From the NCBI GenBank assembly GCA_948466345.1, contig CAOKAC010000003.1, positions 140,812 through 204,811 of the forward strand: DNA of 64,000 bases, read 5' to 3'. Both the position numbers and the translations under genes were made by a program. Numbering within the stretch: the first letter of the stretch is position 1; each line of letters begins with the position of its first letter. The DNA is from an uncultured Clostridia bacterium. GTDB taxonomy: Bacteria > Bacillota > Clostridia > Oscillospirales > CAG-272. The notes under the pieces are model-generated. The model had not been told where the DNA came from and made no database searches. It saw nothing but the letters and a program-made list of their open reading frames with translations. Below, piece by piece: positions 35,781-62,442 of this stretch.

Positions 35781-36296
35781 ATGACAGAAGAAAAAGAGTT
35801 TATATTTGGAGAAGTGCGGGAAAAAAAGCGGTCTTATTTGGTATATTTGCCGATTGCTGCATTTTTGATTTGTATTGCCGCAGGAACATATATAGGGGGA
35901 GACGGCGGCGCTTTTGTTCGTTTGGAAAATCCCTTTGATAAAGACACCTCCTTTTTCTTCACCTGTGCGGGGATATGCTTTTTAGATATTGTACAAACTT
36001 TGCTGATTGGAGTGGGTGCAGGTCAGCGTATGTTTATTCCCGTTGCAACGGGAATCGGGGCGCTTCGAGGAATGGCTCTTGGTGCAGCAATTTCTTTTTG
36101 TACCGAAAATGCGCTTCCCAGTGCGGCAGTCGGCATGACAGCTTCGTTTGGTGCCGTATCGGCACTGCTCCTTTGTTACGGGACATTTATGCATCGCATC
36201 TCTTGTGAGACCGGTTTTTTGTATCGTATTCTATGTTATTTTGCAGTAAGCGGAGCAGCAGCGCTGCTGCGATTGCTGCCGTATCTGTTGCTTTGA
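35781..36296 (+). CDS. hypothetical integral membrane protein
   Basis: 171 aa, about 4-5 hydrophobic helices, no recognisable motif. Confidence 0.5.
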   Translation: MTEEKEFIFGEVREKKRSYLVYLPIAAFLICIAAGTYIGGDGGAFVRLENPFDKDTSFFFTCAGICFLDIVQTLLIGVGAGQRMFIPVATGIGALRGMALGAAISFCTENALPSAAVGMTASFGAVSALLLCYGTFMHRISCETGFLYRILCYFAVSGAAALLRLLPYLLL

Positions 36297-36324
36297 AAGA
36301 AGTTTTACAGAGAAAGGAAGTCAA

Positions 36325-37362
36325 ATGGCAAAAAAGTATGAAAATATGGGCGATAAAAACGCTTATGATAAGGAACCCCAAAAGAAAAAGCGCTTCACGC
36401 TGAATCCTTTTGAAAATATGTATCAAAAGGAGGGGAAGGGAGTTGGGCTGGAGGAACTCCATGTACTGGAGAAGCCGAATCTGCGAACCTTTTTTAAGCT
36501 TCTGCGCCGCAAGTTGAATTATATTTTTTCCATAAATATTTTGATGGTTGTGGGGAATTTTCCGCTTTTATTTGCATTGTTTGCTGTGGCGTATACATTA
36601 AATGAAGCTTTTGCCCCTAATTATCAGATTTATTCTGTACTCCAGGGAGCAGCGTATTTTGATAATTCGCCGCCGATTCTATCGCTTCTGGGTATATATG
36701 GATTGCAGGACAGTGTATCTATTTTTACGACAGCATCTTATGTGTTCTTGGGGCTCTCTGCACTGGTTCTGTTTACCTTCGGACCGGTAAATGTAGGAAC
36801 CACCTATATTTTGCGTAATATGGTACGAGAAGAACCGGTATTTGTGTGGAGTGATTTTTGGTATGCTGTGAAGCGAAATATTAAACAAGGGATTTTATTC
36901 GGAATCATTGATTTGGCGATGATTGCAATTCTGGCATTTGATATGCTGGCATATCGAATCAATATTTTAAATAGTACGCTGTATTTCGGGTTGTATATTC
37001 TCAGCTTCGGGATGATGATCATGTATTTCTTTATTCGAATGTATGCGTATCCCATGATCGTTACTTTTGATATGAGCCTTTGGAAGATTTTTAAAAATTC
37101 TATTTTCTTTGCCATTTTGGGAATCAAACGAAATATCTTGGCACTCCTTGGCACAGTGATTCTTTTTGTACTGGACTTTTACCTCATGGGCATTTTCTTG
37201 CCTTTGGGATTGATTTTGCCCTTTGTTATTTTGCTTGGCATGGCAGGCTTTATGTGCAATTATGCCTCGTTCCCTAAAATCAAACAGATTATGATAGATC
37301 CGTATTATAAAGAAGTAGACGCAATGAACGGCGGAGAAAATATGGCTGCATCACAGAAATGA
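36325..37362 (+). CDS. YesL-like (DUF624) membrane protein
   Basis: 345 aa, multi-TM. The N-terminal cytoplasmic segment followed by INILMVVGNFPLLFALFAV resembles DUF624. Confidence 0.45.
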   Translation: MAKKYENMGDKNAYDKEPQKKKRFTLNPFENMYQKEGKGVGLEELHVLEKPNLRTFFKLLRRKLNYIFSINILMVVGNFPLLFALFAVAYTLNEAFAPNYQIYSVLQGAAYFDNSPPILSLLGIYGLQDSVSIFTTASYVFLGLSALVLFTFGPVNVGTTYILRNMVREEPVFVWSDFWYAVKRNIKQGILFGIIDLAMIAILAFDMLAYRINILNSTLYFGLYILSFGMMIMYFFIRMYAYPMIVTFDMSLWKIFKNSIFFAILGIKRNILALLGTVILFVLDFYLMGIFLPLGLILPFVILLGMAGFMCNYASFPKIKQIMIDPYYKEVDAMNGGENMAASQK

Positions 37363-37364
37363 AG

Positions 37365-37399
37365 AAAAACCAGGTCAACAAAGTTGACCTGGTTTTTTT
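37365..37399. terminator. bidirectional intrinsic terminator
   Basis: CCAGGTCAAC-aaa-GTTGACCTGG flanked by an A-run and a T-run. Confidence 0.8.
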
Positions 37400-37407
37400 A
37401 TAGTTAT

Positions 37408-38250
37408 TTAGTTTCCGCAGCCGCAGCGCTTGCCGTTGTCCGTACTGCATCCCCTAGCTAGACTGCCTGCAGAAGGCGGGCAGAACTCATTTACAGGGAA
37501 AGCCATACTGTGGAACAATCGGCAGGGATCATCTTCGTGTACTTCCTGGCAAACTTTTTCGGGAACGCAGTATTCCACTGCATTTACCAGATATTGCGCA
37601 GGGCGCTCAATACGAATTACGGAGAAGAGTCCTAGGGTAACAACCAATTTGTCTCCCTCTGTGTCACAAATGTCACCGCCGGATACTGTGCAGCAAACTC
37701 CCTGAGGAATTTCGTCACAGCAGCAGCAACAGCAACAGCATTTCTGTTCTGGCTTTACAATTTTGCAGGACAGAATAATCGGGTCTACTGCTTCTACGAC
37801 AGCAATGGGAAGATTTGTAGTCATAGGGCATCCGCAGCCGTCTTTGGGCGGGCAGAAGCCGGAGCAGTTATTATCGCTTTTGAATACGCTTACATTGCCT
37901 TCGCTGCCAAACAGAATGACCTTTTTCTCAACAACAGCGATACCTTCTACTTCCTGTATATTTCCGGGAGAAATACACGCTTCGCAGGTAACACGGATAT
38001 AGATCTTAATAGTCAACTGATAGAATCCTCTGTTGAATGGAACACAATCAATGTTGATATAAGACCATACGATTCTGGCACATTTGCAGCGTACTGCAAC
38101 TCCTCTATCAACAAGCTCCTGGCCGTATCCGGTCAGAAATACACGTACATCCTCGAAACAGTCCTTGTCGCGGCAGGAATCAAGAACCCGGTATGTATCG
38201 ATACATACCATTTCCCGGGACGAGGGCTGACACTGTCTGTTATCAGACAT
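37408..38250 (-). CDS. cysteine-rich protein (~32 Cys in 280 aa, C8 run), unknown function
   Basis: ATG 38250 behind GGAGG. Sequence reads ...EQKCCCCCCCCDEIPQGVCCTV... plus many CxC/CxxC pairs. No signal peptide or TM helix seen. Confidence 0.7.
   Translation of the reverse strand: MSDNRQCQPSSREMVCIDTYRVLDSCRDKDCFEDVRVFLTGYGQELVDRGVAVRCKCARIVWSYINIDCVPFNRGFYQLTIKIYIRVTCEACISPGNIQEVEGIAVVEKKVILFGSEGNVSVFKSDNNCSGFCPPKDGCGCPMTTNLPIAVVEAVDPIILSCKIVKPEQKCCCCCCCCDEIPQGVCCTVSGGDICDTEGDKLVVTLGLFSVIRIERPAQYLVNAVEYCVPEKVCQEVHEDDPCRLFHSMAFPVNEFCPPSAGSLARGCSTDNGKRCGCGN
37717..37740 (-). repeat. (TGY)8 trinucleotide tract encoding eight consecutive cysteines
   Basis: Plus strand ACA GCA GCA GCA ACA GCA ACA GCA, which is minus-strand TGC TGT TGC TGT TGC TGC TGC TGT, in frame with the CDS. 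Confidence 0.9.
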
Positions 38251-38333
38251 ATATATTATACCTCCTCTGAGCATAAGACAGCAAGTATTTACTGCCTTCG
38301 CTATATCATATGCGCAGGTATACAAGTTGACAA

Positions 38334-38654
38334 TCAGATGTCCGCCTCTATAAAATCCGGGAAAGCTTCTTCTAAAAGCTGAAATCCTCGTAAAATCGCC
38401 ATAGTATTGTCCAAAATCAAGGCGTTATCGTCCGGCAGTTCAAAATCCATTCGTACATATCCTGCAGAAAAATCTTCTCTGTAACGCTCAATTTTTCCTT
38501 CCTCGTATGCTTCACGCAGCAGGGCACGCAGTGTGTAACATAAAATCGACACCGCAGAGCATAAAATATCCTGTCCGGCAGAGGCATATTCTGTATGTCC
38601 AACACATTCAAATAAGTACGTGTCATAATACGTGTCAAAAGAAATTTTGGTCAT
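38334..38654 (-). CDS. Prp/YsxB-like cysteine protease (phage-associated)
   Basis: 106 aa. GHTEYASAGQDILCSAVSIL aligns with the Prp catalytic His/Cys block (GHAG...GQDIVCAAIS in B. subtilis YsxB). ATGA overlap with the portal stop. Confidence 0.7.
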   Translation of the reverse strand: MTKISFDTYYDTYLFECVGHTEYASAGQDILCSAVSILCYTLRALLREAYEEGKIERYREDFSAGYVRMDFELPDDNALILDNTMAILRGFQLLEEAFPDFIEADI

Positions 38655-40288
38655 TGTAAAAGCTCCTTTGAGGAGATAGGTGCAGGAGAAAGAGACCTTT
38701 CACCGTTTTCACGCACCCGGCGCAAAATTTCTTCTTTTCCCTCGAATTCCATGATTTCAAGACAAAGCTGTGCCTCATTGCTGCGATGGGGTTCAAAAAT
38801 ACCCATTTTATACAGTTCACAGGCAAGCTCATTCATAGCCATTCTGGAGAATGCTGTTTTTTTGTGTGCACGAACTTTGATATCAAAGATAGGCTGCGCA
38901 CGCAAGAAGGATTCATCATCGTTTTGACCAAATATATCGCTTCCACATTGAATAAACGCTTCCAGACCGTCAGCGCCCACAATGCGGAAGCAGCGCGGCC
39001 AGGTATAAAATTGGCGGATTAGATCGATCAGAAAAATACAGATATCTTCATAAGCACGATATGCTCCGGAAAGCATATCTCGGGAGCTTTTGTTACCGGC
39101 TTCCTGAAGCGCCGCAATGGCAGATGCTGCAGTGACACCGCCGCTGGTAGACCCTTGGGAGAAATCCCGGTTGCCAGTGGTTTCTTTTATCTCGTCAATT
39201 TTATTGTTTAGTATAGCGACATAAACTTCTGAAAGAGTGGGAACGGTGATGGGCATAATGGATGTGGATGGATCTCCGGATCCGGAATAGTGCACAAAGG
39301 GCTGGTCCCACTTGGCAAATTCTTTTTCGTTAATGCTGCCGTCGCTGCGTACAAAAAAGCGTCTTTCAGCTGCCATTCTGGCATTGCGTACAATGGCACT
39401 GCTTAAAATATCTATTTCTTTCTGGGTGCCCCGCATAGCGTCAATTACACTGAAGCCGCAGGGTGACCCTTGTATTGGATACATTTTGTCAATTACAAAG
39501 GGATATCTTCCATGATTATAAAATCCGATTTCCCGATACAGCGGATCATTTTCTGAGGCGTACAGGAGAATTCCATTGCAGAATTTACAAAAGTGCAGAC
39601 ATTCTTTCCCATCTTTTTTTGTTTTATAGTACCAATCGATTACAGCTGATTTGTCGGAGGTATCAACAGTATCGTCATAAATATACTGTGTGATATCAAA
39701 AGTTGGTGTGGCAAGACAGTCCTGCAATACTGGATATTCTTCCTGCAAGTAGTCATTATCCCAAAGATCCACGTGAAAAATATTTTGTGATTTCTGTATG
39801 TCTGTGATGCCTGGCTCCCAGAAAAGGTTGAGCAGGTCAATGCGCCGTACATCAATGTTACCAAGGCCCTCGTCCAGAGATTGATTCCAGAAAACTCCGT
39901 AGCATGCGGCGCCGTACTTTAGTTTATCATACCAGCATTCGGAGTAGGTACTTTCAAAATGGTTTCGTTCCAAAATAAGCGGCAGGATGTCAGTAAGCAG
40001 ACGCGCTGCTGGTCCATCGCTTTTTTCACGCGGTAAACACGTTGCCTCCGGGATATTGTCCATGGCATCGGCATGTTTGTTAATAATTGTGTTAAACAGC
40101 CAGCCGGTAGCGATAGAGTCCTCACTTTTGTCATCGTAATGCCGCATTTTCCACCACTGCTCACTGTCGATGATGCGTTTTTCGAACGATGCTTTTCCTG
40201 CCTTATATTTTTCCAGTATGGCGTATGCCGCACATACGGTGTCATTTGTGATTGGCTCCGCTGTACGCCCTTTTTTTTGTTTTTTCAT
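38651..40288 (-). CDS. phage portal protein
   Basis: 545 aa directly downstream of the large terminase. GGAGG RBS. The N-terminal YKAGKASFEKRIIDSEQWWKMRH and the overall size fit Firmicute siphophage portal families. Confidence 0.7.
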   Translation of the reverse strand: MKKQKKGRTAEPITNDTVCAAYAILEKYKAGKASFEKRIIDSEQWWKMRHYDDKSEDSIATGWLFNTIINKHADAMDNIPEATCLPREKSDGPAARLLTDILPLILERNHFESTYSECWYDKLKYGAACYGVFWNQSLDEGLGNIDVRRIDLLNLFWEPGITDIQKSQNIFHVDLWDNDYLQEEYPVLQDCLATPTFDITQYIYDDTVDTSDKSAVIDWYYKTKKDGKECLHFCKFCNGILLYASENDPLYREIGFYNHGRYPFVIDKMYPIQGSPCGFSVIDAMRGTQKEIDILSSAIVRNARMAAERRFFVRSDGSINEKEFAKWDQPFVHYSGSGDPSTSIMPITVPTLSEVYVAILNNKIDEIKETTGNRDFSQGSTSGGVTAASAIAALQEAGNKSSRDMLSGAYRAYEDICIFLIDLIRQFYTWPRCFRIVGADGLEAFIQCGSDIFGQNDDESFLRAQPIFDIKVRAHKKTAFSRMAMNELACELYKMGIFEPHRSNEAQLCLEIMEFEGKEEILRRVRENGERSLSPAPISSKELLQ

Positions 40289-40327
40289 ATTTGATTCATC
40301 CTCCTTGCCGCTATGCGGCTTTTTATT

Positions 40328-41713
40328 TTAATATGTAAATTGTCTATATTTTTGTCCGTTCGCCAACAGATTTAATGGATCGTCGCTTGCTGATTGAACA
40401 GCAGACGCGGGATTCGGCCGGATGGGCCGGTTCATACAGAAATATCGAAAGGAATCGGCAAAGTGATCTTCCTGGGAAGTATCCAAATCTTCGGGACAAT
40501 GTTCGCTATAAGTGAGTAAGGGCAGGGTGCGTATGGCGTGTTTACAGGTATTAAAAAAATATACCATTGGTTTCCCATCCCCATCAAAAGCAAGTCGATA
40601 ATGGCACTGCATCCATCCTGGCAGGCGCTTGTTGTCTCCGGGCTGAAAGTATACATAATGTCGGTCTGCTGCTTCAATAATGGCTTCTCCACGGGACGCG
40701 TCCCATATGGAAGGGTCGGCAACTCCGAAAATTTGTTTGCCCCGCAGCCAGCGGTGTTCTGCTTCAATTTTGTGGATTTCCCGAAAAATTCGATCGGGAT
40801 CCCATTTTACCCCTTCGTTGGGGTTTATACAGCCATATAGCTGCAGGATCAAGTAGGCGCGCCCTTCAAAATCAATTGCCCACCAGTCACAGGAAAAAGG
40901 TTTAGAATATCCAAAGTCAAAGCTACGGTACAGTTTCCAATCCGGCGGAACTTCAAAGGGATCAATTACATGGGTATAGAGCTTGTCGCGATAGTGGGAT
41001 GCATCGTCGGTAAATTCTTCAAAAAACTGTCCCTCAAAAATATCCCAGTCACCCTCCAGCCAAGCTTTACGCAGTTTGGGAGGCAATGCTTCCAGCTTTT
41101 GAATATATCCGGGATCACTTTGCATCAGCGCTGTATTATCTGTGACAAGAGAGCGGATAAACATATACTCGTCTGCCTCTTCTCCTGGTTTAGTGGCTTT
41201 ATCAACAAATAGCCGTTTTACCCAGCCATGTCCTACGCCTCCCGGATTACAGGTGAGATAAATTCGTTTTGGATAGGTATTTACACCGCGAACGCAGGCC
41301 TTGATTCGATCATACATTTCTTCCGGGAATTGTGTTGCCTCATCTATAAACAGCACATCGGTTTCTGTTCCTTGAAATTTATCCAGGTCTGCTACATTAC
41401 GACAGTAGCGAAAAGCAATAACCGATCTGTTTTTAAAGGTCATATCCCGAGTAGATTCCTTGTATGTAGCAATTCCATGGAGTAGAGGAATCATAGGCAC
41501 GATGTGGTTTTGCCGCAGCTCTGGGTAGGTACGGCGCACAATCATAATACGAATACCAGGATAATGCAGGGCTAACAAGGCTGCCTTAATGCGTACAGCC
41601 CAGCTTTTGCCCCCTCCGCGGGCACCGCCAAAAGCGATGTATCGATGTGTATCCGCAAGAAATAGTTCCTGCCGAGGGGAGGGCCTTGGAATTTGAAGGG
41701 TTACTTTGCCCAT
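40328..41713 (-). CDS. phage terminase large subunit
   Basis: 461 aa. Walker A FGGARGGGKSW, Walker B VLFIDEAT, C-terminal RNase-H-like nuclease region (FDFGYS...DHFADSFRY). Confidence 0.85.
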   Translation of the reverse strand: MGKVTLQIPRPSPRQELFLADTHRYIAFGGARGGGKSWAVRIKAALLALHYPGIRIMIVRRTYPELRQNHIVPMIPLLHGIATYKESTRDMTFKNRSVIAFRYCRNVADLDKFQGTETDVLFIDEATQFPEEMYDRIKACVRGVNTYPKRIYLTCNPGGVGHGWVKRLFVDKATKPGEEADEYMFIRSLVTDNTALMQSDPGYIQKLEALPPKLRKAWLEGDWDIFEGQFFEEFTDDASHYRDKLYTHVIDPFEVPPDWKLYRSFDFGYSKPFSCDWWAIDFEGRAYLILQLYGCINPNEGVKWDPDRIFREIHKIEAEHRWLRGKQIFGVADPSIWDASRGEAIIEAADRHYVYFQPGDNKRLPGWMQCHYRLAFDGDGKPMVYFFNTCKHAIRTLPLLTYSEHCPEDLDTSQEDHFADSFRYFCMNRPIRPNPASAVQSASDDPLNLLANGQKYRQFTY

Positions 41714-42138
41714 TTTTCAATGTCCCCCTCCAGCACCACGTTTATGGCGGTATCGCAGTCTTCAGTATCGGCTTCTTCCAGTCCACGGATTACAGCAGCC
41801 AATTCTTTTGCGGCAAGAGTCAGTTCCTTTAGCTGACGGATATCCGCATGGTCACCGTTTTCCAATGCTCCCTTCATTTCGGCGGCCATTTTGTCAATAA
41901 TTTCTGCTATGGTTTCTACAGCTAACCGCAGCCGCGTACTTTGGCCTTCATTTTCTTGTCGGGGCTGTGAACCGTTAGGAGAATATTGGCTTTTTTTTTG
42001 GCGTGTATGGTACCATCCATCCTTTCTACCAATTTTTTGTAAGCTAGGAACTGGGATGCCATATTTATCTGCAAGGCTTTTATAGCTGGCTCCTAACATG
42101 AAATCATGCCGAATCATCTTTAATCTTTCATCTGTCAA
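41701..42138 (-). CDS. phage terminase small subunit (HTH)
   Basis: TTG start at 42138 behind AAAGGAG. N-terminal HTH (GASYKSLADKYGIPVPSLQKIGRKDGW). 13-nt overlap with terL. Confidence 0.65.
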   Translation of the reverse strand: MTDERLKMIRHDFMLGASYKSLADKYGIPVPSLQKIGRKDGWYHTRQKKSQYSPNGSQPRQENEGQSTRLRLAVETIAEIIDKMAAEMKGALENGDHADIRQLKELTLAAKELAAVIRGLEEADTEDCDTAINVVLEGDIEKWAK

Positions 42139-42342
42139 TCGTCACACTCCTTTCTGACAGTACATAGCATAGCGGACTTTGGCTGTCATTTCTCCCCATC
42201 AGGAATATACTGGTATAGGATTGTAAAAAGAGGCGGTAAAAAGGAAGAACGCGAAATAGCAGTTTTTCAGGCTGGTTTACAGAAAAACAACTGAATTTTT
42301 AAAGTAAAAAAGGCGGGAGCCAATGAAAGGAAAGGGAACAGT

Positions 42343-42564
42343 ATGATGTGTATAGCGGCAATGAAGAATATGACAGCCGCCATAAAAGGGAGAAGTGCAC
42401 TGGAATTGGTGGGAATACGGTGTACAATTGTTAGTTTGGAACCTACACTGACAAAACGGGGATGTGCGTATGGACTGAGTTTTCCATGTGCATATTTGGA
42501 TAAGGTAAAATCTGTTTTGTCGTCCAAACGGATCAACTATGGTGAAATACTGGGCGGCAGATGA
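42343..42564 (+). CDS. DUF3343 domain protein (putative S/Se carrier-like)
   Basis: 73 aa. The pattern ...A...L...GI.C.IVSLEPTLTKRGCAYGLSF... fits DUF3343. Its stop lies 15 nt before the class-V aminotransferase start, a common pairing. Confidence 0.6.
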   Translation: MMCIAAMKNMTAAIKGRSALELVGIRCTIVSLEPTLTKRGCAYGLSFPCAYLDKVKSVLSSKRINYGEILGGR

Positions 42565-42578
42565 AAGGGGGAAGGCGG

Positions 42579-43712
42579 ATGATATATCTTGATAATGCGG
42601 CGACTACGTATCCAAAGCCGGAGTCTGTCGTACAGGCAATGACTACGTGTATGCGGGAATATTGCGGAAATCCAGGGCGAGGAAGTCATACTATGGCGGT
42701 ACGTGCATCGGAAAAGCTGTATGAGTGCCGGCAAGAGGCTACGGAACTATTCGGCGCCGACAGCCCAGAAAATGTAGCGTTTACTTTAAATACTACGTAT
42801 GCACTGAATATGGCGATTAAGGGACTTATTCCTGCGGGATCCCATGTAATTCTATCGGACATGGAGCATAATAGCGTGCTTCGCCCGGTAGAGGAACTAC
42901 GCAGGAGCAGTGGCGTCCATTATGATATTTTTCGTACAGGCGGCAGTGACTTCGAAACACTGGAACGCATCCGCCGCCTGATTAAGCGGGATACAGTGGC
43001 TGTTATATGTACTGGCTGCTCGAATATCATTAACCGCACACTACCAATACGTGATATTGGAAGACTGTGTGAAAACCATGGTCTATATTTTATTTTGGAT
43101 GGGGCGCAGGGCGCTGGTATATATGATATCAACATGCGTCGGGATAAGATTACAGCACTTTGTGTTCCAGGCCATAAAGGATTGATGGGGCCCCAAGGAA
43201 CTGGTCTTTTGATTCTGCGTGAAGATGTGACGATTGATACACTCGTAGAAGGCGGCAGCGGTATTCATTCAGCGGATCCGGGCATGCCGGATTTTCTTCC
43301 GGACAGACTGGAGGCTGGAACGATGCCCACACCTGGTATCGCAGGACTTTGTGAAGGGATTCGATATGTGCGCAGCAGGGGAGTGGAAGAGATACGCGCC
43401 CATGAGGCAGGGCTTTATCGGGCATTGATGAACACCTTGCGGGGAGATTCTAGGTTGGTAATTTACAGCAGTAGAGTTCCAGGTGCAATTGTTCTGTTTA
43501 ATATTAAAGGCGTCAGTGCCCAAAAGACAGGATATGAGTTGGATAGAAGGGGGATTTGTGTGCGCAGTGGACTGCATTGTGCACCACTTGCCCACGAAAC
43601 GTTAGGAACGCCGGATGGCGGCGCGGTGAGAGTAAGCTTTGGTCCGCTTTCTTCCATGAACGATGTTACAGGTTTTTGTAATGCGCTGCACGATGTGATA
43701 AAAGCGGAATAG
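42579..43712 (+). CDS. class V aminotransferase-fold PLP enzyme (cysteine desulfurase family)
   Basis: MIYLDNAATTYPKP start, PLP-lysine region VPGHKGLMGPQGTG, C-terminal VRSGLHCAP. Confidence 0.8.
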   Translation: MIYLDNAATTYPKPESVVQAMTTCMREYCGNPGRGSHTMAVRASEKLYECRQEATELFGADSPENVAFTLNTTYALNMAIKGLIPAGSHVILSDMEHNSVLRPVEELRRSSGVHYDIFRTGGSDFETLERIRRLIKRDTVAVICTGCSNIINRTLPIRDIGRLCENHGLYFILDGAQGAGIYDINMRRDKITALCVPGHKGLMGPQGTGLLILREDVTIDTLVEGGSGIHSADPGMPDFLPDRLEAGTMPTPGIAGLCEGIRYVRSRGVEEIRAHEAGLYRALMNTLRGDSRLVIYSSRVPGAIVLFNIKGVSAQKTGYELDRRGICVRSGLHCAPLAHETLGTPDGGAVRVSFGPLSSMNDVTGFCNALHDVIKAE

Positions 43713-57288: not shown

Positions 57289-58392
57289 TTATGCTTTTTC
57301 CCGTTCAAAGAAATATTTTTGATTGTGACATTTGATACTCTGCACCAGCCCAATAAGCATATACATTGCCAGCAGAGAAGAGCCACCGTAACTCATAAAG
57401 GGAAGGGTGATTCCAATTACCGGCAGCATCGCCAGACACATTCCGATATTTTCCAGCGTTTGAAACATAAGAACCGCAACGACTCCGGCACAGATATATG
57501 CCCCGTAATCCTTTCGGGCGATGCGTGCAATCCAAATCAGACGGATTACCAGTGTGGTCATCAGCGCCATATATAAGAAACAGCCGAAAAATCCAAACTT
57601 TTCTGCAAGAATGGCGAAAATGAAATCGGAATAGCAGTCGGGAATGAGCTTATATTGAGTTCCTCCGGAAAATCCGGAGCCAAGAAATCCTCCAGCCGCT
57701 ATAGCAGTACGGCTGCTCAGTGCTTGAAACCCTTTTCCAAGAGGATCTAATTCTGGGTCGAACCCACAGATAATTCTCTGCCTCTGCGTTTCGCTCAAAA
57801 ATTTCCATAAAACAGGCGACGCTGCCGCGACAAGGGCAAACGCCCCGATAAAATACCAGATAGAAAGCCCGCCTACAAGGAGCATAACGGCGATGATTCC
57901 AAGATATACTAAGGCGGATCCCAGGTCTCCGGTCATTAAAACCAAACCAAAAATGATACCTCCATGAATAGCCAAGCCGGCTACATTTTTTATATGATTG
58001 ATATCGTCCTGTACACGTTTGATGTGCCGGGAATAAGTAATGATAAATAAAAACTTTACATATTCTGACGGCTGTATATCGAAAGGTACACCAGGGATAC
58101 GCAACCATGCCTTGTTTCCACGATCTCCTGCTCCAAAGACGATTACGGAGGCCATTGCAAGGACTGCTAGGACAAAAATCCATATACCGAAGCGTTTGAC
58201 CAGCTTGTCATAATCCAAATATGCCAGAACAAACATAACGCAGATGCCAAGGAGCGCCGCAATAGATTGCACTATCGCGTACCGTGAGCCAACTTTGTTT
58301 GCAGCTCCTGCTAGTGTAACAATAGAAAGGGCGGTCATACCCAGCACGCAAAATAGGATTACATAATCGATTTGACGCAGCTTTTCTTTCAA
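57289..58392 (-). CDS. FtsW/RodA/SpoVE family peptidoglycan glycosyltransferase
   Basis: 367 aa, about 10 TM helices. SEYVKF, GDLGSAL and PFMSYGGSS motifs of SEDS proteins. Confidence 0.85.
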   Translation of the reverse strand: MKEKLRQIDYVILFCVLGMTALSIVTLAGAANKVGSRYAIVQSIAALLGICVMFVLAYLDYDKLVKRFGIWIFVLAVLAMASVIVFGAGDRGNKAWLRIPGVPFDIQPSEYVKFLFIITYSRHIKRVQDDINHIKNVAGLAIHGGIIFGLVLMTGDLGSALVYLGIIAVMLLVGGLSIWYFIGAFALVAAASPVLWKFLSETQRQRIICGFDPELDPLGKGFQALSSRTAIAAGGFLGSGFSGGTQYKLIPDCYSDFIFAILAEKFGFFGCFLYMALMTTLVIRLIWIARIARKDYGAYICAGVVAVLMFQTLENIGMCLAMLPVIGITLPFMSYGGSSLLAMYMLIGLVQSIKCHNQKYFFEREKA

Positions 58393-58449
58393 AGAAACAG
58401 AAAACTCTTTCAGGGTAAAACCTCCTTTCTATATTAAATTCTCATATTT

Positions 58450-59889
58450 TTAATATGCGATTGCCCAGTATACCATATGCTTTGCAGGTTTACCGCAGCA
58501 GACGCACCGATCGGACAACTTCTCCTGCTGAAAGGGAATACACCGAGAGCATACACCCGTTTCTTCTTTTACCTGGTCTTCACAGGCTTCTTCACCGCAC
58601 CACATGGCCTTAACAAAGCCCTCTCCATTTTGCGCAATAGCGGTTTTAATTTCTTCTATGGTAGTGCAGGCGTAAGTATGCGCAGTCCGATTGGACAGCG
58701 CCTTTTCGTACATACCTGCACGCACCTGCTCTAACCGTTCTGCCACCACTTTTTCGATGTTTTCCAGTCCATCAAAATTCTTTTCACGATTGTGACGCTG
58801 GACAGTAACACATTTGCCTTCCGCAATATCCCGAGGCCCGATTTCAATACGAAGGGGAACACCCTTCATTTCATACTCGGCAAACTTCCATCCAGGAGAA
58901 TTGTCGCTGTCGTCTACTTTTACCCGGAATTGGCCCTTGAGACGATCCCGCAGAGCGTACGCTGCTTCCAATACTCCATCCTTTTGTTGCTGTACCGGAA
59001 TAATTACAACTTGAATGGGCGCTATAGCCGGAGGAAGTACTAGACCGTTGTTGTCGCCGTGAGACATAATGAGTCCGCCGATCATCCGGGTAGAAACGCC
59101 CCAGGACGTCTGGAAGGGATGTACCAGCTTATTTTCTTTATCGGTGTATTTTATATCAAAGGCTTTGGCAAAACCATCTCCGAAATAATGAGAGGTGCCT
59201 GCCTGCAACGCTTTTCCATCGTGCATAAGCGCCTCAATGGCGTAAGTGGCTTCCGCACCGGCAAACTTATCGCTTTCTGTTTTTCTTCCCTTGATCACCG
59301 GAATGGCCAAATCCTGTTCATGGAAATCAGCATAGCAGTTTAGCATACGAATGGTTTCTTCTTCTGCCTCTTTTGCTGTAGCATGAATAGTATGACCCTC
59401 CTGCCAAAGAAATTCTCTGGAACGCAGGAAAGGGCGAGTGGTTTTTTCCCACCGCACAACGGAACACCATTGATTATACAGTTTAGGCAGATCCCGGTAA
59501 GATTTCACTACGTTTGCATAGTGCTCACAGAATAGTGTTTCCGAGGTAGGGCGCACACAGATCCGTTCGGTGAGAGGCTCGCTTCCTCCATGCGTGACCC
59601 ATGCCACTTCCGGTGCAAAGCCCTCTACGTGTTCTTTTTCTTTATTTAACAGGGATTCCGGGATAAACATGGGCATATATACGTTTTCATGCCCGGTTTC
59701 TTTAAAACGAGCGTCCAGATTTTTTTGAATCAGCTCCCAGATTGCATATCCGTAAGGGCGGATTACCAGACAGCCTTTTACGCTGGAATATTCAATCAGT
59801 TCTGCTTTTTTGCAGATATCTGTATACCATTTTGCAAAATCCTCGTCCATGGAGGTGATTTGATCCACCATTTTTTTATCGTTTGCCAT
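58450..59889 (-). CDS. proS: proline--tRNA ligase (archaeal/eukaryote-like type)
   Basis: 479 aa. [36 protein letters not shown]-terminus, class II motifs, and a C-terminal Zn-binding domain ending ...WAIAY. Confidence 0.9.
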
Positions 59890-59958
59890 TGGTTACCTCT
59901 TTTATAAATGTAAATATAGTAAATATTGTATATCAGAATCGTCTGTTTGTCAAATAGC

Positions 59959-62442
59959 TTATTCCTTTTTTAGTCTAGCAAAGGATGCCATCAGCTTTTT
60001 AATTCCTATTTTATCAAATTCGACTTCATACAGTATATCTGATCCCATCGGTTTTACAGACAGTATTGTTCCGCTGCCAAAAGTAGTATGCCGGACTCTA
60101 GCTCCTTTATCAAAGCGTTCCAGTGATGCTGCCGCTGCAGTACGTGGGACGGCGCCCGTTTTGGGTCGCGGGGCTCCCATGCCGGATAAATTTCCAGTAT
60201 AAGCTGCCCGTTCTTCTCCGGTTCCGTACCCACTGCCGGGTGCGTTTTTGTTGTAGATAGGAGTGCTGCCGGAGTGTTGGAATGTTCCCTTGGTATAAGC
60301 GCGCTCACCGACCGACTGATAATCGGTAAAGGTATCGTCTGCCTCTTGTAAAAGCCAAGGTGGAATCTCACCAGCAAAGCGGGATTTTTTATTGTATTGG
60401 GTGCTGCCGTTAAGCATACGCTGGTGTACATGGGTGATGTAAAGCCGCTGCCTAGCCCGGGTAATAGCTACATATGCCAGGCGTCGCTCCTCCTCGATTT
60501 CCGTAGGGTTCATGATAGCCTGAAATCCCGGAAAGATGCCTTCCTCCCAACCGGGGAGAAATACATTTTGAAATTCCAATCCCTTTGCGCTGTGAATGGT
60601 CATTAGCACTACAGCGTCCGCAGCTTCGTCATATCGGTCAATATCCGAGACAAGCGCTACGTCTTCCAGAAATTCAGACAGGGAAGGGGTGGCAGTTGTA
60701 CTTTCGTACTGCGCAGCGGTGGAAACCAATTCACCGATATTATCCAGCCGTTCCTTCTCCGCGTCGCCGGCTGCGATCCACATTGCCTGATACCCGGATT
60801 TTACACAGACTTTTTCAATAAGTGCAGAGATTTTTGAATCCTTTGCATCTGTCCTCAGTTCATCTATCAGCTTTGCCAAGGCCATCATAGCCTTGGCAGC
60901 GCTGGAGGGAATTGCAGTATATGTATTCGCACGTGCTAAAACATCCAGCAGGGGAATCTGTAGTTCATCGGCAATTGCCATAGCCGCCCCGATGCTTTTT
61001 TCACCAATTCCACGGCGAGGCGTATTGATAATTCTTCGCAGGCGCACGCTGTCCGCCGGGTTATTGACAACGGATACATAGGCTAAGACATCTTTGATTT
61101 CTAAGCGGTCAAAGAATCGTAAGGCTCCCAGCATGCGATAGGGAATACCGCTTTTGGCCAGCGCCTGTTCAATAGCGCGGGACATGGCGTTGGTTCGGTA
61201 CAGAACGGCAAAGGAAGAAAATGCGCCGCCGTCCTCGTGCAGTTCTCCAATCGTATCCGATATAAAACGGGCTTCGTCTAACTGAGTAGAGAGCTTTTTC
61301 AAAAAGATTTTTTCTCCTTCATCTCCCTGGGTCCACAGTTTTTTGCCTTTTCTTTCTTTGTTATGCACAATAACCGCATTTGCAGCGTCCAAAATTCGTT
61401 TGGTAGAACGGTAGTTTTGCTCTAGGCGAATTACTTTTGCGTTTGGATAGGTATTGTCAAAAGTGAGGATATTTTCAATGGTAGCGCCACGAAATTTGTA
61501 GATGGACTGGTCGTCGTCTCCAACTACCATCAGATTTTTATATCCCCCTGCTAGAAGGGATACCAGCTCAAATTGGGCGCGGTTTGTATCCTGATATTCG
61601 TCAATGGAAATATAGCGAAACCGGTTTTGCAGATTTTGCCGTACGTTCTCAAAGCTTTGCAGCAGGGTGACTGTCTGCATGATGATATCGTCAAAGTCCA
61701 GCAGGTTGGAAGCCTGCAGACGGGACTGATATAATTCGTAAACCTGACCGATTTTGCGCAGCCGGCTGTCGCTTCCTACTTCCGTTTGGTACTCTTCCGG
61801 AGTCATTAGATGGTTTTTGGCTCTACTGATTTCTGTAAGAATGCTTTTGGCAGGAAGAAATTTAGCGTCAATATTCAACTGCTTCATACATTCCGCAATC
61901 AGCTTTTTCTGGTCGTCTGTATCCGCGATACCAAAGCCGGATCCATACCCTACCAATTCTCCGTGTCTACGCAGGATTCTCATGCAAACAGAGTGAAACG
62001 TACCGGTCCAGATATCCTGTACCTGTGATGCGTCCTCTCCAAAAATAGAAGTAAGCCTTGCCTTGATTTCCCCGGCAGCTTTATTTGTGAAGGTGACAGC
62101 TAATACAGACCATGCCGGCGGTGGGTTTACCGCGAAGCGCTCTAAATATTCCCCGAGCTGTTCTCCATCCAACTGCATAGCTTCTGTCATAGACTGTAAG
62201 TCGTCGGAGGTACAGTCTTCCGGTACATAATCTGTCATGTATGCGTCGCCGTAACGAATGATGTACGCAAGACGACTAACAAGAACGGTTGTTTTTCCAC
62301 TGCCCGCTCCTGCTAAAATCATCAGCGGATGATGAATGGTATAGATACATTCCCGCTGTTGGCTGTTCAGGTGGCCATAATATTTATCAAATAGCTTACG
62401 TTTCTGCACAGTATACTGCAGACGCAGAGTTTCGTTTTCCAT
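59959..62442 (-). CDS. pcrA: ATP-dependent DNA helicase PcrA/UvrD
   Basis: Walker A AGAGSGKTT, DEYQDTN, VGDDDQSIY, TIHSAKGLEF and VAITRA helicase motifs. C-terminal Tudor-like FGSGTI. Confidence 0.9.
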   Translation of the reverse strand: MENETLRLQYTVQKRKLFDKYYGHLNSQQRECIYTIHHPLMILAGAGSGKTTVLVSRLAYIIRYGDAYMTDYVPEDCTSDDLQSMTEAMQLDGEQLGEYLERFAVNPPPAWSVLAVTFTNKAAGEIKARLTSIFGEDASQVQDIWTGTFHSVCMRILRRHGELVGYGSGFGIADTDDQKKLIAECMKQLNIDAKFLPAKSILTEISRAKNHLMTPEEYQTEVGSDSRLRKIGQVYELYQSRLQASNLLDFDDIIMQTVTLLQSFENVRQNLQNRFRYISIDEYQDTNRAQFELVSLLAGGYKNLMVVGDDDQSIYKFRGATIENILTFDNTYPNAKVIRLEQNYRSTKRILDAANAVIVHNKERKGKKLWTQGDEGEKIFLKKLSTQLDEARFISDTIGELHEDGGAFSSFAVLYRTNAMSRAIEQALAKSGIPYRMLGALRFFDRLEIKDVLAYVSVVNNPADSVRLRRIINTPRRGIGEKSIGAAMAIADELQIPLLDVLARANTYTAIPSSAAKAMMALAKLIDELRTDAKDSKISALIEKVCVKSGYQAMWIAAGDAEKERLDNIGELVSTAAQYESTTATPSLSEFLEDVALVSDIDRYDEAADAVVLMTIHSAKGLEFQNVFLPGWEEGIFPGFQAIMNPTEIEEERRLAYVAITRARQRLYITHVHQRMLNGSTQYNKKSRFAGEIPPWLLQEADDTFTDYQSVGERAYTKGTFQHSGSTPIYNKNAPGSGYGTGEERAAYTGNLSGMGAPRPKTGAVPRTAAAASLERFDKGARVRHTTFGSGTILSVKPMGSDILYEVEFDKIGIKKLMASFARLKKE

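Follow-up and report, generated by a model that had tools for sequence, protein, structure and literature searches.

A cysteine-rich protein of uncultured gut Clostridia is a probable distant homologue of the exosporium protein CsxA

The 64,000-nucleotide stretch of DNA analysed here (the window; contig CAOKAC010000003.1, positions 140,812 to 204,811 of the forward strand) comes from an uncultured Clostridia bacterium of the Oscillospirales lineage CAG-272 and encodes, on the minus strand at 37408-38250 with the stop codon included, a protein of 280 amino acids with 32 cysteines. This protein is very probably a homologue of CsxA, which by self-assembly builds the crystalline basal layer of the exosporium in Clostridium sporogenes/C. 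botulinum group I; its hexagonal arrays are cross-linked by disulfides, and the exosporium cannot form without it (PMC7333573; bioRxiv 10.64898/2026.09.03.749163). The assignment draws on the open reading frame (ORF) itself (ATG at 38250, TAA at 37410-37408), its homologues, the ratio of nonsynonymous to synonymous substitution rates (dN/dS) and profile alignment with CsxA, and places a previously unannotated family, as judged from its sequences, as distant members of the CsxA superfamily. Sequence comparison further suggests that the window protein is probably a self-assembling, disulfide-cross-linked lattice protein of the spore envelope.

Homology to CsxA, family constraint and predicted fold

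Compared by BLASTP with the CsxA reference sequence (G9F2G0, 299 amino acids, 25 cysteines, taken from the supplement of PMC4942563), the window protein shows 43% identity over residues 202-253 (E = 2e-6), and the N-terminal motif VCI..(V/I)(L/F)D.C..K(D/E)C is additionally aligned. With hhalign, a profile of 93 family sequences matched the single CsxA sequence at 98% (E = 3e-13, 221 columns) and a profile of 39 CsxA-family sequences at 99.1% (E = 5e-19, 208 collinear columns). As controls with reversed or column-shuffled CsxA alignments gave E values of 0.1-0.6, cysteine composition does not account for the match. A run of eight consecutive cysteines in the window protein (C8) is aligned opposite the CGGGCNCGCTC cluster of CsxA, and the conserved block TLGLFSVIRIERPAQYLVNAVEYCVPEK.C...DDPC.LF opposite ITLGLFIIIKCEIVVQLMVPAYGYCPVPEECKCSHDPCKEF.

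The family to which the window protein belongs is large. Among 5.8 billion proteins searched, 2827 homologues reached E <= 1e-3; at the same threshold, a profile matched 1201 of 1.84 billion representatives of clusters at 50% identity, and a scan of one genome per species in GTDB confirmed at least 586 loci. Among the 120 homologues listed of the 2827, lengths are about 265-325 amino acids, no Pfam domain is annotated, every given name is "hypothetical protein" and the sources are Clostridia, Oscillospiraceae or Ruminococcaceae metagenome-assembled genomes. "Candidatus Avispirillum" and uncultured Clostridia provide matches at 97-100% identity, and the exact 280-residue protein recurs on 71 contigs. 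Between close species the dN/dS of the gene is 0.005-0.03, a measure that is unusable above 25% amino-acid divergence, where dS is saturated (a pair of portal genes, at loci L038 and L045, gave an artefactual value). With 2827 homologues and such a dN/dS, the window ORF is a real and strongly constrained gene. Constraint also extends to residues other than cysteine, as the family alignment contains invariant non-cysteine stretches such as PFNRGFYQL, VILFGSEGN and RIERPAQ. The best-conserved N-terminal motif, LDSCRDKDC (codons 23-31; 38158-38184, minus strand), consists of invariant alignment columns and is, in other species, a site at which prophages split the gene. The number of cysteines ranges from 6 to 33 across the family; in the wide alignment, near-invariance is limited to C26, C31 and C243.

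Curated libraries give the protein no name. Neither a Pfam nor an NCBIfam family was found for the window protein at E <= 1, nor a PHROG match; the same three collections yielded no family for 93 family members, and a sequence search of the PDB with two profiles returned noise only (E > 0.1). The sequence-only reading, which was made without database searches, had recognised no family; this stands for the curated libraries and falls at the profile level, where the protein aligns with CsxA. Its proposal of a cross-linked, cysteine-rich protein of the spore surface is supported by the CsxA homology, but not through the families it had named by analogy, among which CotY, CotZ and ExsY gave no Pfam match.

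The AlphaFold2 model reached a mean predicted local distance difference test score (pLDDT) of 68 with 52 close sequences, and a pLDDT of 81 with a predicted template modelling score of 0.77 when 93 diverse sequences were supplied. It consists of a sheet of long strands (residues 16-40, 52-69, 76-94, 97-114, 149-165 and 201-221) plus short helices, with less confident cysteine-rich loops at about residues 120-148, at the C8 block (pLDDT about 61) and in the C-terminal tail. Foldseek searches with two AlphaFold2 models against PDB and BFVD gave no match at E <= 0.001. The window protein has no signal peptide, its N-terminus being hydrophilic, and contains one moderately hydrophobic stretch only (residues 147-165, Kyte-Doolittle 1.77). 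Because this stretch carries glutamate, aspartate and lysine and is modelled as a beta-strand, a transmembrane helix is unlikely here, in agreement with the earlier statement that the protein possesses neither a signal peptide nor such a helix.

Cysteine cluster, expression signals and proposed function

Cysteine makes up 11.4% of the window protein (32 of 280 residues), in comparison with a mean of 2.1% and a maximum of 4.9% in the other 48 large ORFs of the window; the binomial probability of at least 32 cysteines is about 2e-14. The C8 run comprises residues 171-178 in the context EQK-CCCCCCCC-DEIPQGVCC and is encoded at 37717-37740 (minus strand) by the imperfect tract TGC TGT TGC TGT TGC TGC TGC TGT, located according to sequence and family alignment in the loop between strand 158-165 and D(D/E)IP. 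CxC pairs at 55/57, 139/141 and 276/278, a CxxC at 89/92, a CC at 186/187 and the C-terminal RCGCGN complete the picture, so that the composition described from the letters alone (a very cysteine-rich 280-residue product, C8 from a TGC/TGT tract, many paired cysteines and the terminal RCGCGN) was recovered in full from the translation.

The position of the cysteine cluster is conserved throughout the family. Of 132 sequences, 115 have 17-19 residues between DPxxL and D(D/E)IP, and in most members this linker contains four to six cysteines, with the longest run ranging from 1 to 8 and varying mainly by substitution. That the tract is a contingency locus, at which slipped-strand mispairing of the (TGY)8 repeat changes the number of cysteines and thereby creates surface variants, had been raised on account of the 24-nucleotide TGC/TGT run, in which steps of three would keep the frame; the range of run lengths across the family and the occurrence of a C7 variant (P0363, on 8 contigs) in the 90% identity cluster are in its favour. 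The tract is not a perfect repeat, however, its longest pure unit run being (TGC)3, and six species-level relatives separated by dS values of 0.7-1.0 keep exactly eight cysteines with differing TGC/TGT patterns, which argues for selection on the amino acids rather than for repeat dynamics. Moreover, C8 is present in 14 of the 15 distinct sequences of the 90% cluster, the length differences within this cluster fall in the C-terminal tail, the exact protein is shared by the 71 contigs mentioned above, and most differences across the family come from substitution inside a linker whose length hardly changes. Length change by slippage is hence hardly credible, and the cluster is, as read from the alignment, a selected feature of which C8 is the extreme form.

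Expression signals were compared among 81 distinct upstream regions from related loci, which are strongly diverged outside the elements described here. A -10 box of the mother-cell sigma-E/sigma-K type, CATATGATA, is located at 38304-38312 (minus strand), and its consensus CATAnnnT[AG] is kept in 78 of the 81 regions against a mean of 9.9 in shuffled sequences. The composite motif G[TA]CA-N15/16-CATAnnnT[AG] occurs in 46 of the regions, at a median distance of 64 nucleotides before the ATG, against 0.11 in shuffles; its -35 part reads GACA in 10 and GTCA in 36 of them, the window included. In the window, the -35 region TTGTCA (38328-38333, minus strand), identified by the composite motif and a sigma-70 scan, starts 1 nucleotide past the stop codon of the preceding Prp-type protease gene, and its C (38329) stands 16 nucleotides before CATA, which is the place of the C in the sigma-K 'AC'. 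A correctly spaced -35 C is found in 68 of the 81 regions, and when regions were anchored in sigma-A style without requiring the two bases CA before TAnnnT, these were nevertheless invariant (46 of 46). CATA is the hallmark -10 of mother-cell sigma factors, and sigma-E and sigma-K share this -10 and differ at the -35, with ATA and AC respectively (PMC3789822). Conservation thus gives good, if not conclusive, support for a mother-cell sigma factor, and the promoter may be of either the sigma-E or the sigma-K type. The motif is the same at loci with and without the phage-like genes described below. The sequence-only reading had placed the -10 element correctly and had noted the absence of a properly spaced AC -35; it had overlooked the GTCA at the sigma-K AC position, where 10 of the 46 relatives read GACA.

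Directly after the -10 box, near the predicted transcription start, the 5' untranslated region folds into a stem-loop, GCGAAGGCAG...CTGTCTTATGC (38271-38301, minus strand; -14 kcal/mol, z = -3.0 against shuffles). Its structure is kept among relatives and its stem sequences differ; the z values of 77 relatives have a median of -2.5, with 73% below -1.5, and an Rfam scan of positions 36000-43000 found no family. In keeping with what is generally known of mRNA decay in Gram-positive bacteria, the stem-loop is a putative 5'-terminal mRNA stabiliser; a conserved GAAG(A/G)C at its base could alternatively be a regulator site. The ribosome-binding site GGAGG, already recognised as the gene's own, lies 10 nucleotides before the ATG (38261-38265, minus strand), and AGGAGG-like sites are present in most relatives. 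Downstream, a terminator scan and the sequence indicate a bidirectional intrinsic terminator with a 15-17 bp stem between an A-run and a T-run (37365-37397, both strands), common to the convergent DUF624 gene.

These features can be joined into a model in which, late in sporulation, the mother cell would transcribe the gene from the conserved sigma-E/sigma-K-type promoter, with the 5'-terminal hairpin and the strong ribosome-binding site presumably favouring high output. The protein, lacking an export signal, would fold in the mother-cell cytoplasm into the predicted beta-sheet core and, by homology with CsxA, would oligomerise and tile into an ordered lattice around the forespore. Packing in this lattice may gather cysteines of the surface and loops, chiefly the cluster before D(D/E)IP (here C8) and the C-terminal CxC, and intermolecular disulfides, as proposed for CsxA, would lock the array into a robust, reducible layer of the spore envelope.

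Several observations weigh against this model. Identity to CsxA is just about 22% over the profile alignment. In the precomputed annotation, all 87 CsxA hits carry PF27077.1, whereas PF27077 is missing from every one of the 120 relatives listed, among them P0001, which represents the 90% cluster of the window protein; membership was judged indirectly from this annotation, as the Pfam/NCBIfam copies used for hmmscan contain no CsxA model and CsxA itself gave no match. Since all CsxA hits carry the family and no listed relative does, the window protein is filed outside PF27077 as now drawn, and appears as a homologue in a divergent sister family. No sporulation gene, housekeeping genes only, was found among the 30 window ORFs scanned, so that spore formation by the host is not evident from the window; indirect support for the model comes from SpoIIID, which is encoded 6 kb from one family member. 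Many Clostridium csxA loci have a collagen-like (BclA-type) gene nearby (PMC7333573), and no run of at least eight GXY triplets was present in any frame in the window or in the fetched loci with an intact relative or cassette, flanks included. As for the promoter, a sigma-70 scan reads it as TTGTCA-17-TATGAT, a score of 10 of 12, and the -35 of the window has TC, not AC. Finally, we infer the assembly, the disulfides and the location of the window protein alike.

The sigma-70-like score also bears on a different function, that of a cytoplasmic metal-binding or redox-buffering protein (metallothionein-like, or a carrier of Fe-S or Zn) unrelated to spores and transcribed from a sigma-A-type promoter. 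The extreme cysteine content with its CxC, CxxC and C8 motifs would suit such a protein, as would the cysteine desulfurase-like and selenium/sulfur carrier-like genes encoded beyond the phage-like cassette. On the other hand, CsxA, to which the protein is homologous over its full length, builds a structural lattice; across the family the majority of cysteines vary, and counts from 6 to 33 fit cross-linking better than a defined metal site; many non-cysteine residues are conserved and the beta-sheet core is predicted with confidence; and sigma-A promoters are not characterised by the invariant CA seen in CATA. We consider a metal-binding role distinctly unlikely.

A spore-envelope lattice function, if correct, would have wider implications. 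Of the scaffolds of the Clostridium exosporium, CsxA alone has a molecular model so far, and most of the relatives known for it come from Clostridium sensu stricto. For uncultured gut Clostridia, the spores of which drive host-to-host transmission, the link to CsxA supplies one conserved protein with a name and a mechanism that can be tested, and the family provides hundreds of natural variants, with 6 to 33 cysteines, in which the lattice-building cysteines can be sought. It also offers a marker of outer-spore-layer capacity in metagenome-assembled genomes.

Phage-like neighbours and relatives split by prophages

The csxA-like gene is preceded, on its own strand, by a TerS-like gene (41701-42138), TerL (40328-41713), a P22-type portal gene (38651-40288) and a gene for a Prp-type cysteine protease (38334-38654), which together form a cassette (38334-42138, minus strand) without capsid, scaffold or tail genes. 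The flank on the side of the cassette carries a class-V aminotransferase and a small selenium/sulfur-carrier-like gene, then ispE, nadB and nadC, and the opposite flank DUF624, proC and a GNAT gene. A gene of the RodA/FtsW/SpoVE family, proS and pcrA, encoded at 57289-62442 of the window, adjoin the csxA-like gene in other genera (L001:1427-6556), and the ancestral neighbourhood may thus be about 20 kb away in this genome.

With only 83 nucleotides and no terminator separating it from the co-directional terS-terL-portal-Prp genes, the cysteine-rich gene might be taken for part of the phage remnant beside it, either as cargo or in a structural role such as that of a decoration protein, a scaffold or a substitute for the capsid, the more so as complete relatives of that phage have scaffold-like and major head genes after Prp and as cassette and cysteine-rich gene remain neighbours in more than 20 species, also in those with a different downstream flank. 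This possibility, which the sequence-only reading had offered as its alternative, is not sustained by the wider comparison. Of 84 related loci, 46 are free of phage genes nearby and instead have a gene for a small P-loop protein of 135 amino acids directly upstream; the csxA-like gene has its own promoter motif, kept with or without the cassette, and the same cassette occurs without a cysteine-rich gene at locus L122. The protein itself has neither the PHROG match nor the BFVD fold match that a phage component might have given. Relatives 32-48% identical occur in IMG/VR and in GenBank "Bacteriophage sp." records (37-48% for the hits in 'viral' collections, 32-43% in the GenBank phage records), but among the IMG/VR loci whose ORF was inspected, the hits are, with one exception, split fragments of a host gene at the edges of predicted prophage contigs. 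A phage cargo is accordingly most improbable and, given the loci free of phage genes and the promoter motif common to both kinds of locus, the cysteine-rich gene is, on present sequence comparison, an autonomous chromosomal gene and a unit separate from the phage-like genes.

The small P-loop protein (MLKLIIGVKGTGKTK..., e.g. L001:9472-9879 and L004:9473-9880) has no family in either Pfam or NCBIfam; a conserved partner elsewhere, it is absent from the window. Two further candidates suggested by the phage context were rejected: an HK97-type capsid or encapsulin, considered for the position after portal and Prp, as there is no fold match to a solved or viral structure and the family is mostly non-phage; and a substrate of Prp, as no L27-type QFF|A motif is visible by eye and the conserved EF(C/F)PP is also present in members without the cassette.

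The cassette deserves attention in its own right. At 21 of 21 other loci where it precedes the cysteine-rich gene, TerL, portal and Prp are intact, full-length and covered by a single high-scoring segment pair, save for contig-end truncations in two (the cassette loci being L005-L019, L022-L024, L027, L038, L045, L116-L119 and L123-L126). The lowest identities are 66% for TerL, 58% for the portal and 39% for Prp, with a dN/dS of about 0.03 at a dS near saturation, and TerL surpasses the neighbouring aminotransferase in conservation. The cassette is thus intact in more than 20 species and subject to purifying selection. The order of aminotransferase/selenium carrier, cassette and csxA-like gene is constant, and the downstream flank varies. 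In complete phages with a TerL up to 73% identical (L113, L120), scaffold-like and major capsid genes follow Prp; the chromosomal cassette ends there, and the csxA-like gene occupies the exact place where related phages encode scaffold and capsid. By its conservation, the cassette looks domesticated rather than decaying. It could be a functional unit which packages DNA into capsids supplied by a helper phage or by dispersed operons of the gene transfer agent (GTA) kind, in the boldest version together with the cysteine-rich lattice protein, a possibility that we regard as speculative and on balance unlikely. For Oscillospiraceae and Ruminococcaceae, GTA-like packaging has been reported in a study which also points out that GTA genes are spread over dispersed operons (PMC12946183). 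The conserved capsid-less cassette is therefore a separate lead, not a conclusion, on domesticated phage machinery in bacteria where GTA-like packaging was recently reported.

Further observations concern the surroundings of the cassette. The same four genes recur in another lineage and in a quite dissimilar chromosomal environment at L122:9778-13464, with a TerS-like protein of 81 amino acids, a TerL 70% identical, a portal of 583 and a Prp of 105 amino acids, between a two-component system on one side and DUF308/DUF2238 and rplL-rplJ-rplA-rplK-nusG-secE on the other, without capsid gene and without csxA-like gene. Upstream of terS, at about 42216-42181 (minus strand), the motif CAT(A/T)nTATTC (ATACCAGTATATTCC in the window), followed by GGGGAGAAAT about 5-45 nucleotides on, is conserved across species; it could serve the cassette as promoter or leader, and its first part resembles a CATnnTA-type -10. 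Divergent from the cassette, and syntenic in all species examined, are the class-V aminotransferase gene (cysteine desulfurase-like; 42561-43712, plus strand) and the selenium/sulfur-carrier-like ORF of 73 amino acids (about 42325-42546, plus strand).

The fragments at prophage contig edges follow a pattern. In nearly all IMG/VR loci whose ORF was inspected, homology to the family breaks at about residues 24-28 (in DSC.DKDC), at about 73 or at about 156 (L085-L112), and one species has contigs with different combinations of breaks and others with intact sequence. ORFs of 494-502 amino acids with Resolvase and Recombinase domains, i.e. large serine recombinases, stop exactly at the residue 24-28 break in four loci (L087:8502-10010, L090:8461-9945, L094:8437-9924 and L097:8525-10018), three of the four with a Zn-ribbon; endolysin genes lie near other breaks, and the junctions share a common sequence (L085-L103). 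Sporulation genes are known targets of gene-intervening elements, such as skin in sigK, SPbeta in spsM, gin in gerE and yin in yabG (PMC5595907; PMC4191935; PMC10747680), which are excised in the mother cell, rebuilding the sporulation gene (PMC5595907). By this analogy, the prophage-split pattern may be said to support a role in sporulation indirectly. Genes of the csxA type are not named as a target in the literature found on these elements, and with the split alleles the list of sporulation genes interrupted by recombinase-bearing prophages would gain a new entry.

Comparison with known spore-envelope systems

The gene-intervening elements of sporulation genes and the split relatives described here are alike in their defined sites and in a serine recombinase gene abutting one junction; the window's own copy is intact. 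A likeness of another kind exists with ExsY, CotY and CotZ of Bacillus, which follow the same strategy of cysteine-rich self-assembly into a disulfide-locked array and are not homologous to the window protein; in addition to the missing Pfam match noted above, the NCBIfam search gave none at E <= 1 for these families, no family recurs among the 93 members, and the fold of ExsY/CotY/CotZ has been described as different (PMC7333573; bioRxiv 10.64898/2026.09.03.749163).

Another class for comparison is that of the envelope proteins with a SPOCS/DUF3794 fold. According to the preprint of Fisher et al. (2026), CsxA has this fold, and its strand-swapped trimers agree with the lattice seen by cryo-EM; trimeric hubs are proposed to crystallise and to cross-link by disulfides (bioRxiv 10.64898/2026.09.03.749163). 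The class includes the cysteine-rich CsxC, CdeC and C. sordellii CsA/CsB as well as the cysteine-poor morphogenetic proteins CotE, SipL and SpoVID. None of the 93 family members matched the DUF3794 Pfam model at E <= 10, and CsxC showed no profile similarity to the window family; through the homology to CsxA, the logic of trimeric hubs and disulfide locking would extend to the window protein.

CsxA itself remains the nearest known system. The two proteins appear homologous over nearly their whole length and share the N-terminal motif VCI..K(V/I)(F/Y)D.C..K.C and the C-terminal core TLG.F.I(I/V)(K/R).E..VQ(L/Y)L(V/I)(P/N)A..YC.P..EC...DPC..F..(F/L)P. They are similar in size (280 amino acids in the window protein, 299 in CsxA), rich in cysteine (32 and 25, respectively), without signal peptide and cytoplasmic, and both carry a cysteine cluster in the same loop, which in the window protein is the homopolymeric C8. 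CsxA has an acidic C-terminal tail, which the window protein lacks, and occurs in Clostridium sensu stricto, whereas the family of the window protein belongs to uncultured gut Clostridia of the Oscillospirales type. The genomic company differs likewise, as collagen-like and glycosyltransferase neighbours are frequent, if not obligatory, at csxA loci and none is seen here, and the usual partner of the window-type gene is the gene for the 135-residue P-loop protein.

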